DNA of 64,000 nucleotides, from NCBI GenBank assembly GCA_024137785.1, contig JAHRHZ010000095.1:10356203-10420202 (forward strand), read 5' to 3'. The notes under the pieces were generated by a model that was given only the letters and a program-made list of their open reading frames with translations, did no database searches and was not told the DNA's origin. Below, one piece after another: positions 6,075-21,370 of the stretch; the stretch's first letter is position 1; each line of letters starts with the position of its first letter. A program made the position numbers and the translations under genes. Source of the DNA: Ginglymostoma cirratum (Eukaryota).

Positions 6075-6973
6075 GCTGTGGAGCTGGAGGAACACAGCAG
6101 GCCAGGCAGCATCAGAGGAGCAGGAAAGCTGACATTTCGACCTGAAACCATAAGACAGGAGTGGAAGTAAGGCCATTCGGCCCATCGAGTCCACTCCGCC
6201 ATTTAATCATGGCTGATGGGCATTTCACCTCCACTTACCCGCACTCTCCCCGTAGCCCTTGATTCCTTGCGAGATCAAGAATTTATCAATCTCTGCCTTG
6301 AAGACATTCAACGTCCCGGCCTCCACTGCGCTCCGCGGCAATGAATTCCACAGGCCCACCACTCTCTGGCTGAAGAAATGTCTCCTCATTTCCATTCTAA
6401 ATTGACCCCCTCTAATTCTAAGGCTGTGCCCACGGGTCCTAGTATCCCCACCTAACGGAAACCGCTTCCCAGCGTCCACCCTTTCTAAGCCATGCATTAT
6501 CTTGTAAGTTTCTATTAGATCTCCCCTCAACCTTCTAAACTCTAATGAATACAATCCCAGGATCCTCAGCCGTTCATCATATGTTAGGCCTACCATTCCA
6601 GGGATCATCCGTGTGAATCTCCGCTGGACACGCTCCAGTGCCAGTATCACCTTCCTGAGGTGTGGGGCCCAAAATTGGACACAGTATTCTAAATGGGGCC
6701 TAACTAGAGCTTTATAAAGTCTCAGAAGCACATCGCTGCTTTTATATTCCGACCCTCTTGAGATAAGTGACAACATTCCATTCACTTTCTTAATCACGGA
6801 CTCAACCTGCAAGTTAACCTTTAGAGAATCCTGTACTAGCACTCCCTGATCCCTTTGTACTTCGGCTTTATGAATTCAAAGCTTTCCTGCCCCTCTGATG
6901 CTGCCTGCCTGCTGTGTTCCTCCAGCTCCACACTGTGTTATCTCAGACTCCAGCACCGGCAGTTCTCACTATC
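6075..6973. mobile_element. Composite: inverted Penelope-like terminal repeats enclosing a CR1 fragment; 13 bp TSD
   Basis: Arms 6077-6130 and 6880-6932 are reverse complements (1 mismatch, 1 indel); TTTGGTTAACTTC flanks both sides (6062-6074, 6974-6986). Confidence 0.8.
6147..6877 (-). mobile_element. Young CR1 LINE 3' fragment with an uninterrupted 205-aa ORF2 C-terminus
   Basis: ORF 6225..6842 LYKALVRPHLEYCVQFWAPHLRK...FFSQRVVGLWNSLP; the same tail recurs at 28223-28303 ending in (tcttatgg)n. Confidence 0.92.
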
Positions 6974-8388: not shown

Positions 8389-8482
8389 TAACAAGGTGTG
8401 GGGCTGGATGAACACAGCAGGCCAAGCAGCATCATAGGAGCAGGCAAGCTCGACGTTTCGGGCCTAGACCCTTCATCAGAAA
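8389..8482 (-). mobile_element. Short Penelope-like terminal repeat with intact hammerhead-like core (8452-8479)
   Basis: Minus strand reads CTGATGA-A-GGGTCTAGGCCC-GAAACGTC. Confidence 0.75.
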
Positions 8483-8618
8483 ATGTCATTTTAATGGCGG
8501 TGAATGGGCTAATCTTCATTGCTGTCTGAATGGTTAGTAAGTGGTTGGGAAGCAAGGCATTGAGGCAGATAGCTGTTTACTCTTCTAAGGGAGTTTAAGA
8601 TCATTATTTGGTTTCAGT

Positions 8619-9119
8619 GTCATTGGGGACTCCATAGTTTGGGGGACAGATAGGAGATTCTGTGGGAACGAGAGAGACTCGAGGTTGGTGTGTTGCCTCC
8701 CAGGTGCCAGGGTCCGTGATGTCTCGGATCGTGTTTTCGGGACCCTTAAAGGGGAGGGGGAGCAGCCCCAAGTCGTGGTCCACATAGGCACCAACGACAT
8801 AGGTAGGAAAAGGGATGGGGATGTAAGGCAGAAATACAAGGAGCTAGGGTGGAAGCTTAGAGCTAGAACAAGCAGAGTTGTTATCTCTGGTTTGTTACCT
8901 GTGCCACGTGCTAGCGAGGCGAGGAATAGAGGGAGAGAGCAGTTGAACACGTGGCTACACGGATGGTGCAGGAGGGAGGGATTCAGATACCTGGATAATT
9001 GGAGCTCATTCTGGGCTAGGTGGGACCTCTACAAATGGGATGGTCTACACCTGAACCAGAGGGGTACCAATATCCTGGGGGGGGGATTTGCTAATGCTCT
9101 TCGGGAGGGTTTAAACTAA
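8619..9119 (+). pseudogene. CR1 ORF1 C-terminal SGNH/GDSL esterase domain (uninterrupted, no native start codon)
   Basis: VIGDSIV (block I), LPGAR (II), HIGTNDI (III), DGLHL (V); stop after EGLN. Confidence 0.9.
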
Positions 9120-9183
9120 TTCAGCAGGGGCTTGGGAACCTGATTGTAGCTCCAGTGTACAGGAGGTTGAGAGTAGTGAGGTC

Positions 9184-11998
9184 ATGAATAAGGTTTCAAG
9201 GTCGCAGGAGTGTACTGGCAGGCAGGAACGTGGTTTGAAGTGTGTCTACTTCAACGCCAGGAGCATCCGGAATAAGGTGGGTGAACTTGCAGCATGGGTT
9301 GGTACCTGGGACTTTGATGTTGTGGCCATTTCGGAGACATGGATAGAGCATGGACAGGAATGGTTGTTGCAGGTTCTGGGGTTTAGATGTTTCAGCAAGA
9401 TCAGGGAAGGTGGTAAAAGAGAGGGAGGTGTGGCATTGTTAGTCAAGGATAGTATTACTGTGGTAGAAAGGACATTTGATGAGGACTCGTCTACTGAGGT
9501 AGTATGGGCTGAGGTTAGAAACAGGAAAGGAGAGGTCACCCTGTTGGGAGTTTTCTACAGGCCTCCGAAAAGTTCCAGAGATGTAGAGGAAAGGATTGCA
9601 AAGATGATTCTGGATAGGAGAGAAGGTAACAGGGTAGTTGTTATGGGGGACTTCAACTTTCCAAATATTGACTGGAAACGCTATAGTTCGAGTACTTTAG
9701 ATGGTTCAGTTTTTGTCCAATGTGTGCAGGAGGGTTTCCTGACACAGTATGTAGATAGGCCAACAAGAGGCGAGGCAACATTGGATTTGGTACTAAATAA
9801 TGAACCAGGCCAGGTGTTAGAATTGGAGGTAGGTGAGCACTTCAGTGATAGTGACCACAATTCGGTTACGTTTACTTTAGCGATGGAAAGGGATAGGTAT
9901 ATATTGCAGGGAAAGAGTTTTAGCTGGGGGAAAGGCAATTATGAGGCGATTAGGCAAGATTTAGGATGCATAGCATGGAGAAGGAAACTGCAAGGGCTGG
10001 GCACAATTGAAATGTGGAACTTGTTCAAGGAACAGCTACTGCATGTCCTTGATAAATATGTACCTATCAGGCAGGGAGGAAGCGGTCGAGCGAGGGAACC
10101 ATGGTTTACTAAAGAATCTCTTGTCAAGAGGAAGAAGGAGGCTTATGTAAAGATGAGGCGTGAAGGCTCAGTTAGGGCGCTTGAGAGTTACAAGTTAGCC
10201 AGGAAGGACCTAAAGAGAGAGCTAAGAATAGCCAGGAGGGAACATGAGAAGTCTTTGGCAGGTAGGATCAAGGAAAGCCCTAAAGCTTTCTATAGGTATG
10301 TCAGGAACAAAAGAATGACTAGAGTAAATTTAGGACCAGTCAAGGACAGTAGTGGGAAGTTGTGCGTGGAGTCCGAAGAGATAGGAGAGGCGCTAAATGA
10401 ATATTTTTCGTCAGTATTCACACATGAAAAAGACAATATTGTCAAGGAGGATGCTGAGATACAGGCTATTGGACTAGACAGGATTGAGGTTCACAAGGAG
10501 GAGGTGTTAGCAATTCTGGAAAGTGTGAAAATAGATAAGTCACCTGGGCCAGATGGGATTTATCCTTGGATTCTCTGGGAAGCTAGGGAGGAGATTGCAG
10601 AGCCTTTGGCTTTGATCTTTATGTCATCATTGTCTACAGGAATAGTGCCAGAAGTCTGGAGGATAGCAAATGTTGTCCCCTTGTTCACGTAGGGGAGTAG
10701 AGACAACCCTGGTAATTATAGACCAGTGAGCCTTACTTTGGTTGTGGGTAAAATGTTGGAAAGGATTGTAAGGGATAGGATTTATAATCATCTAGAAAGG
10801 AATAATTTGATTAGGGATAGTCAACACAGTTTTGTGAAGGGTAGGTCGTGCCTCTCAAACCTTATTGAGTTCTTTGAGAAGGTGACCAAACAGGTGGATG
10901 AGGGTGAAGCGGTTGATGTGGTGTATATGGATTTCAGTAAAGCGTTTGATAAGGTTCCCCACAGCAGGCTATTGCAGAAAATACGGAGGCATGGGATTGA
11001 GGGTGATTTAGTGGTTTAGATCAGAAATTGGCTAGCTGTAAGAAGACAGAGGGTGGTGGTTGATGGGAAATGTTCATCCTGGAGTTCAGTTAATAGTGGT
11101 GTACCACAAGGATCTGTTTTGGGTCCACTGCTGTTTGTCATTTCTATAAATGACCTGGATGAGGGTGTAGAAGGATGGGTTAGTAAATTTGCAGATGACA
11201 CTAAAGTCGGTGGAGTGGTGGATAGAGTGGAAGGATGTTGCAGGTTACAGAGGGACATAGATAAGCTACAGAGCTGGACTGAGAGGTGGCAAATGGAGTT
11301 TAATGCGGAAAAGTGTGAGGTGATTCTCTTTGGAAGGAGTAACAGGAATATAGAGTACAGGGCTAATGGTAAGATTCTTGGTAGTGTGGATTAGCAGAGA
11401 GATCTCGGTGTCCATGTGCATAGATCCCTGAAAGTTGCCACCCGGGTTGATAGGGTTGTTAGGAAGGCATACGGTGTGTTAGGTTTTATTGATAGAGGGA
11501 TTGAGTTTCGGAGCCGTGAGGTCATGTTGCAGCTGTACAAAACTCTGGTGCGGCCGCACTTGGAGTATTGCGTACAGTTCTGGTCACCGCATTATAGTAA
11601 GGATGTAGAAGCATTGGAAAGTGTGCAGAGGAGATTTACCAGGATGTTGCCTGGTCTGGAGCGAAGGTCTTATGAGGAAAGGCTGAGGGACTTGAGGCTG
11701 TTTTCGTTAGGAGAGAAGAAGGTTAAGAGGTGATTTAATAGAGACCTACAAGGTGATCAGAGGATTAGATAAGGTGGACAGTGAGAGCCTTTTTCCTCAG
11801 ATGGTGATGGCTAGCACGAGGGAACATAGCCTTAAATTGAGGGGTGATAGATATAGGACAGATAGCAGACATAGGTTCTTTACTCAGAGAGTAGTAAAGG
11901 CATGGAATGCCCTGCCTGCAACAGTAGTAGACTTGGCAACTTTAAGGGCATTTAAATGGTCATTGGATAAACATATGGATGATGAGGGAATAGTATAG
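9184..11998 (+). pseudogene. CR1 ORF2 (APE endonuclease + reverse transcriptase), disrupted
   Basis: APE motifs YFNARS, ISETW, YRPP, GDFN, LDL, SDH; RT motifs YRPVSL, DFSKAFD, GVPQGSVLGP, FADD; in-frame TAG at 10690, 11017 and 11392; +1 frameshift near 11710. Confidence 0.95.
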
Positions 11999-20477: not shown

Positions 20478-21370
20478 GTCATACGGCACGGAAACAGACC
20501 CTTCAGTTCAAGCAGTCCATACCAAAAGTATTCCCAAACTAAACTAGTTGCACCTGCCTGCTTCGGACCCATATCCCTCCAAACCCTTCCTATTCATGTA
20601 CTTCTTCAAATCCCTTTTAAACATTGTAATTGCGTCCATATCTACCATTTCCTGAGGAAGTTCATTCCACATACAAACTACCGTCTGTGTAAAAGATTTG
20701 CCCCCTTTTTTTTTTTAAAATCTCTCCCCCCTCACCTTGAAAAAATGCTCCTTAGTCTTGAAATCCCGCATCATAGGGAAAAGACACCTGCCATTAACCC
20801 TATCTATATTCCTCATCATTTTATAAACTTCTATAAGGTAACCTTTCGACCTCCTCCGCTCCAGTGAAAAAAGTCTCAGCCTATCCAGCCTTTCCTTATA
20901 ACTCAAACCTTCCAGACCTGGCAACATCTTTGTAAATCTCTTCTGAACCCTCTCCAGTTTGATAATATCCTTCCTATAACCGGGCAACCAGAACTGAACA
21001 CAGTATTCCAGAAGAGGCCTCACCAATGTCTTGTACACCTCAACACTCAAAGGACTGACAAATGAAAGCAAGCGTGCTAAATGCCTTTTTAACCACCCTG
21101 TCTATATGTGATGCAAACTTCAAAGAATTTTGTACCTGCACCCCTAGGTCCCTCTGCCTTACAACACTTCCCTAGGCCCTACCATTAATTGTGTAAGTCC
21201 TGCTGCTGTTTGTTTACCAAAATGCAACGCTTCACATTTATCCACATTGAATTCCATCTGCCATTTTTCAGTCCATTGACACATTTGATCAAGATCCCTC
21301 TTCTAATCTTAGAAAACCTTCTTCACTGTCTGTTGTGCTACTAGTTTCCCTGTCATCCGCAAACTGACTA
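20478..21370 (-). mobile_element. CR1 LINE 3' fragment
   Basis: ORF 20715..21071 YKTLVRPLLEYCVQFWLPGYRKDIIKLERVQKRFT. Confidence 0.9.

Follow-up and report, generated by a model that had tools for sequence, protein, structure and literature searches.

A phased slippery heptamer conserved at the end of ORF1 in vertebrate CR1 retrotransposons suggests programmed -1 frameshifting into ORF2

The CR1 element and its ORF1/ORF2 junction

The analysed window, a stretch of 64,000 nucleotides of Ginglymostoma cirratum DNA, contains on its forward strand, from 8589 to about 12080, a CR1-type LINE that is truncated at its 5' end. It is a dead copy, since ORF2 is interrupted by stops at 10690, 11017 and 11392 and changes frame near 11711-11733. 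The coding parts and the signals at the end of ORF1 are as follows.

8589..9119, + strand: remnant of CR1 ORF1, 5'-truncated, with an SGNH/GDSL esterase domain (Pfam PF13472, E 7e-16) and the end ...EGLN-stop
9092..9094, + strand: TAA at which the -1 frame closes, five codons 5' of the heptamer; the variant 9094 A>G is still a stop
9110..9116, + strand: heptamer T TTA AAC, a slippery site phased as X XXY YYZ, read from the letters of the window and conserved in relatives
9117..9119, + strand: TAA stop codon of ORF1, directly 3' of the heptamer; TAG or TGA in relatives
9247..9858, + strand: apurinic-type endonuclease domain of ORF2 (PF03372, E 1e-19)
10693..11998, + strand: reverse transcriptase and C-terminal part of ORF2, broken, recognised from domain and ORF evidence

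The domain content is that of CR1 elements with an esterase ORF1, namely an SGNH esterase (PF13472) followed by an ORF2 with an APE endonuclease and a reverse transcriptase (PF03372, PF14529, PF00078). The probable assignment to CR1 is based on these domains, on the esterase tree and on likeness, judged by eye, to consensus junctions labelled CR1. The ORF1 remnant is 94% identical to the C-terminal half of a 313-aa protein (P0001), and its closest named homologues come from sharks and rays. The window holds a single copy of the junction; no second ORF1/ORF2 junction was found within it. A short interspersed repeat lies just 5' of the element at 8400-8483, with copies at 1178-1261 (96%), 58631, 6080 and 6929. 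Elsewhere in the window are 3' fragments of CR1 elements of other subfamilies (6225-6875, 20830-21045 and 2664-2806, all on the minus strand) and a SNORA50 H/ACA snoRNA at 49455-49591 on the plus strand (Rfam RF00407).

ORF1 (8589-9119) closes with GAG GGT TTA AAC TAA, exactly as the first-pass annotation had claimed for a phased X XXY YYZ heptamer. The letters of the window also confirm its reading of the -1 frame, FKLIQQGLGNL... up to the TGA at 9185-9187, and its observation that this copy has its ORF2 in the +1 frame. The TTTAAAC word occurs 21 times in the window, counting both strands, and alone means little; what recurs in relatives is its phase and its place at the ORF1 stop.

Conservation of the heptamer in vertebrate relatives

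The dipeptide LN forms the C-terminal end of 49 of the 67 longer ORF1 homologues, from shark to snake; among the named hosts of homologues are sawshark, rays, coelacanth, a mormyrid fish, frogs, turtles, lizards and a snake. Three collections were scanned in a codon-blind manner, requiring D-G-x-H-L...G...L/F-N-stop and leaving the codons free. At least 81 matches were listed, and 14 of them were classed as CR1-like by tblastn to ORF1 or to the downstream endonuclease. Four bacterial-type esterases (L030, L058, L062 and L066; E<1e-8, at most 30% identity, no downstream endonuclease) were moved to the controls after inspection. Among the matches listed, exact T TTA AAC is present in 10 of the 14 CR1-like loci, compared with none of the 67 others; in the remaining four CR1-like loci the heptamer is damaged, with one or two letters differing. 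After an additional scan, T TTA AAC was found in none of 60 distinct open L-N-stop controls, which use 25 different codon sets; seven of these controls carry T TTA AAT, formally also a heptamer. The p values of such comparisons overstate the case, because 11 of the 14 CR1-like loci are mutually related and come from one data set, which we take to be bird-like. Protein-guided locus searches found no further relatives.

Published consensus sequences extend the range. In the library supplementing PMC13343379, searched over the first 400 letters of each entry, 17 of the 23 matches to TTTAAACTA lie at the ORF1/ORF2 junction as judged by eye, in 11 species from chimaera to crocodile. In a lizard entry of the same supplement the heptamer is followed by a TGA stop. 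Among the junctions visible in searches of these entry starts anchored on the flanks, 6 of 7 (downstream G word) and 7 of 7 (upstream H-L codons) carry the heptamer; the seventh junction of the former set starts inside the heptamer, for one word 14 of 17 places were listed, and both sets overlap the 17 junctions above. The statement in the first-pass annotation that amniote CR1 ORF1s end in LN-stop over TTTAAAC is therefore borne out by the searched parts of these entries, and in a wider range of vertebrates.

Two observations concern other labels. The beginning of AldAff_Crack-2, an entry of the PMC13343379 supplement labelled Crack, shows the end of an esterase-like ORF1, again with this heptamer and stop; a passage of PMC13343379 reports vertebrate Crack elements to be without ORF1. 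Vertebrate-type CR1 also occurs in bacterial assemblies labelled Jeotgalibacillus and Carnobacterium (L013, a 257-nt contig, and P0070), likely as contamination.

More distant lineages were reached through proteins. A profile built from LN-ending proteins was used to collect the best 150 matches, 85 of which have a normal tail after the D-G-x-H motif. Their tails end in LN (46), GN (8), KN (2) or LK (1), so that heptamer-compatible ends make up 57 of 85; for internal dipeptides the corresponding figure is 116 of 1715. GN is preceded in seven of eight cases by Gln, whose codon can end in G and not in T, and KN by Ser; the residue before LN has pyrimidine-ending codons in 16 cases and purine-ending codons in one. 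At the protein level, the ends QGN and SKN would thus fit the slippery sites G GGA AAC and A AAA AAC. A residue incompatible with T precedes LN in 1 of 46 proteins and in 6 of 60 bacterial controls, a difference that is not significant (p 0.14). In a quick tree the proteins with GN and KN ends group in a single clade; seven rows form another esterase clade, in which ends of the LN, GN or KN type do not occur. Neither protein-guided searches nor a pattern for the QGN lineage found the DNA of the GN/KN lineages. In several proteins KN, FF or GF stands where ORF1 usually ends, and the tail continues (P0205, P0182, P0211, P0193 and P0194; P0144, P0181, P0207 and P0212); these longer tails look as if the slippery site had been kept while the stop shifted downstream.

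TTTAAAC-stop could have been kept for a C-terminal Leu-Asn or as a DNA or RNA signal, for instance in a promoter, for cleavage or for splicing, the -1 phase being incidental. The LN end of most homologues could indeed be a protein motif, and in this copy the palindrome GTTTAAAC is formed around the heptamer. However, the need for a protein motif would not hold TTA, AAC and the preceding T constant, given the variety of codon sets in the controls, and related esterases end without LN or in GN or KN. As for a nucleic acid signal, no pyrimidine tract follows the CTAAT-like word, and the palindrome is not general. We consider such explanations the least probable of those discussed here. A splice branch point in particular was ruled out by eye (no pyrimidine tract, and CTAG in most relatives). 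The heptamer is kept at the DNA level beyond protein need, silent positions included.

Reading frame of ORF2 and its point of entry

The features that bear on the frame of ORF2 are located between the heptamer and the endonuclease domain.

9110..9237, + strand: putative trans-frame linker from the heptamer to the endonuclease, with variants favouring third codon positions of the ORF2 frame
9142..9143, + strand: site of the one-base deficit of this copy relative to sister copies, from the run alignment
9184..9186, + strand: ATG in the ORF2 frame, variable between lineages and not a family-wide start

Four runs aligned to 8990-9290 gave 6494, 6652, 226 and 0 records (the last in X21), which are contigs and not reads. 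The single indel listed is an A inserted behind 9142, seen in 71, 56 and 5 contigs of X1, X4 and X15 (27%, 30% and 20% of the depth aligned across the site). Aligned depth collapses at 9142/9143, where most records stop aligning, and the loose ends at 9141/9143 (119, 118 and 47 records) likewise carry the extra base. The loss of one base near 9143, which the first-pass annotation had deduced without seeing it, is thereby visible in sister copies of three runs, and the extra A puts their ORF2 into the frame reached by a -1 shift at the heptamer, as it had proposed. The overlap of stop and start in ATGA that it also described exists only through the lost base; with the extra A the TGA at 9185 drops out of the -1 frame that leads from the heptamer into ORF2, and the overlap is therefore accidental, peculiar to this copy. 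In X1 and X4 the ATG at 9184 is altered in 60-76% of depth, and in X15 it is unaltered; an intact relative (P0068) has a Met at the matching position.

Among the best-supported 40 of the 122 variant rows, no variant falls in 9103-9119, and 10 of the 16 positions that vary within 9143-9237 are at third codon positions of the ORF2 frame (p 0.016). These third-position variants include 9150 and 9159, both 5' of the ATG at 9184, and suggest that the linker is translated.

The endonuclease was reached in 10 of the 14 CR1-like loci, and in eight of the ten it starts in the -1 frame. Four of the ten (L016, L019, L031 and L043) have 30-92 codons between heptamer and endonuclease without a stop or a Met. 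The -1 frame is shut 1-37 codons 5' of the heptamer, with no ATG in between, in 15 of 15 sequences; in the window the TAA at 9092-9094 closes it, and the ORF2 frame therefore cannot be entered from further 5'. An overlapping ORF2 begun upstream is thereby ruled out, which leaves the heptamer region or downstream initiation as the ways into ORF2. In four protein records the sequence passes from DGLHL through ...FKL and onward with no stop; P0005, P0013 and P0059 continue into the endonuclease motif, with a Met in their linkers, and P0028 into later ORF2 sequence. These are gene models or mutated copies, known from protein alone.

Downstream initiation would mean that ribosomes stop at the end of ORF1 and restart nearby at an AUG or non-AUG codon, yielding a separate ORF2 protein. 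Passages of PMC2881922 and PMC1965478 describe this as a known route of bicistronic LINEs, and UAAUG in the ORF2 frame is present at 3 of the 17 consensus junctions (ScyCan_CR1-1a, SquAca_CR1-17a and SquAca_CR1-6c, in the searched part of their entries); the Met codons of P0068 and at 9184 also fit. However, the four intact linkers named above lack an AUG, and an AUG overlapping or adjoining the ORF1 stop, as in SART1, was found in none of the 14 loci and is absent from the window, so that no conserved AUG was seen. Reinitiation also leaves unexplained the fixed silent positions of T-TTA-AAC, the fixed -1 phase, the conserved F-K-L that lies partly 5' of the stop, and the apparent switch to other slippery heptamers. 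We regard it as the chief rival to frameshifting, yet as an unlikely main route, which may operate beside frameshifting where an AUG is kept.

Canonical -1 frameshifting agrees with the phased heptamer and with its conservation beyond protein need; a downstream ORF open in the -1 frame from the heptamer is found in the relatives, and this copy lacks it through the missing base. Judged by comparative sequence evidence, esterase-ORF1 CR1 elements probably translate ORF2 by programmed -1 frameshifting on U UUA AAC, giving an ORF1-ORF2 fusion.

Candidate stimulators and comparison with known systems

Most efficient -1 sites have a stimulatory fold. Two regions downstream of the heptamer were considered.

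9125..9155, + strand: H-type pseudoknot proposed in the first-pass annotation, not supported here
9127..9136, + strand: G/purine-rich tract at a conserved position, 11-20 nt 3' of the heptamer

Both stems of the proposed pseudoknot can be drawn, with stacking energies of -7.5 and -6.5 kcal/mol. By local folding the region does not stand out from shuffles (z -0.27, +1.0 and +1.55), and the first stem has a pair probability of 0.12 in nested folding, by which the second stem cannot be scored. The best pseudoknot that a simple finder located in the window was equalled by 10 of 100 shuffles. The same finder gave a pseudoknot in 6 of 15 junctions and none in the other nine, and none of those found beats 10% of shuffles; the junction of L019 is almost unstructured. 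Common variants break the pairs: 9132 T>A, in 78-94% of depth, disrupts one pseudoknot pair, and 9142 G>A, in about half of X1 and X4 depth and silent in the ORF2 frame, breaks the four-pair first stem. Across the 15 junctions no conserved pseudoknot or hairpin was found 5-9 nt 3' of the heptamer, and there was no Rfam match at the junction. The common variant 9150 C>T does permit a re-registered second stem of five pairs, and each lineage may have a structure of its own. Still, a frameshift driven by the pseudoknot at 9125-9155 seems very unlikely, as its folds do not exceed shuffles, its pairs are broken by common variants and it is absent from other lineages.

The case for a lineage-specific structure is best illustrated by a distant CR1-like element (L016:428-478), in which T TTA AAC TAG is followed after about 10 nt by a 9-bp hairpin (z -3.0) and the -1 frame is open and free of Met. 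By its sequence this is the most textbook-like frameshift cassette seen, and the sole strong proximal hairpin.

In the G-rich tract the fraction of G is 0.66, against 0.31 further downstream (15 sequences; the region was chosen after viewing the data), and the tract is also visible in the junction alignment. It may be a candidate stimulator or may reflect a coding constraint for Gly-Glu/Asp-Gly in the -1 frame. A long-range partner for the tract was sought, and the best partners lie at unrelated places.

We propose that ribosomes ending ORF1 would slip back by one base on U UUA AAC and enter ORF2. The yield would be much free ORF1 protein and a minor esterase-endonuclease-RT fusion. The adjacent stop codon could act as a pause, the G-rich tract at +11 to +20 could act when protein-bound or in a quadruplex-like form, and in the lineage of L016 a plain hairpin could serve. 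The case for frameshifting is weakened by the lack of a conserved stimulatory fold, by AUGs in some lineages and by the damaged heptamers in 4 of the 14 loci. We nevertheless regard the conserved heptamer at the end of CR1 ORF1 as a real feature, and the mechanism it points to is of a known type.

In most vertebrates CR1 is the predominant group of retrotransposons, according to a passage of PMC13343379. If frameshifting is confirmed, the enzyme that replicates the element would be a fusion of esterase, endonuclease and RT, produced in a fixed proportion to ORF1p, as in retroviral Gag-Pol and unlike L1. ORF2 annotations that begin at the first Met would need correcting, and the reading of CR1 expression constructs would be defined. 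The junctions would also form a natural series 450 million years old in which to look for a frameshift stimulator other than a conserved fold.

No paper on a CR1 frameshift was found in the literature searched, which did not extend to the original CR1 papers (Haas 1997, 2001; Kajikawa 1997; Kapitonov and Jurka 2003) or the Repbase notes; these papers of 1997-2003 may already have proposed it. Translation of CR1 ORF2 is not addressed in any passage found, and the searched passages of PMC4120745, PMC13343379 and PMC3905857 do not mention a frameshift or the mode of ORF2 translation. As described in those passages, the vertebrate canonical CR1 (CR1 subgroup 7, with type IV ORF1) has the same esterase ORF1 followed by an ORF2 with APE and RT, and the junction studied here matches the searched parts of published CR1 consensus sequences of sharks, rays, crocodilians and other hosts.

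Among bicistronic LINEs, SART1, with its UAAUG coupling, and L1, with reinitiation, share the dependence of ORF2 on ORF1 translation proposed here (passages of PMC2881922). They differ in making a separate ORF2 protein, for which a slippery heptamer is unneeded; UAAUG occurs at the three CR1 junctions mentioned above. For L1, production of ORF2 with neither an AUG nor a shift is also possible, according to a passage of PMC1965478. In some Penelope-like elements ORF1 is set off by a frameshift with a pseudoknot (PMC8557442, legend to Fig. 1); these are likewise non-LTR elements with a frameshift between ORF1 and RT, but they belong to the GIY-YIG nuclease class and have a pseudoknot. IBV and other coronaviruses use the identical U_UUA_AAC in the same phase, with a structural protein upstream and the polymerase in the -1 frame (a passage of PMC5009743). 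Unlike the coronaviruses, CR1 has a stop directly after the heptamer and, in place of a conserved pseudoknot, a G-rich tract. A further parallel is offered by TRE5-A and TRE3-A of Dictyostelium, for which the legend of a review (PMC5911963) states that a -1 frameshift is needed for ORF2 translation. Like CR1 they are APE-type LINEs, although they differ from it in clade, host and ORF1.
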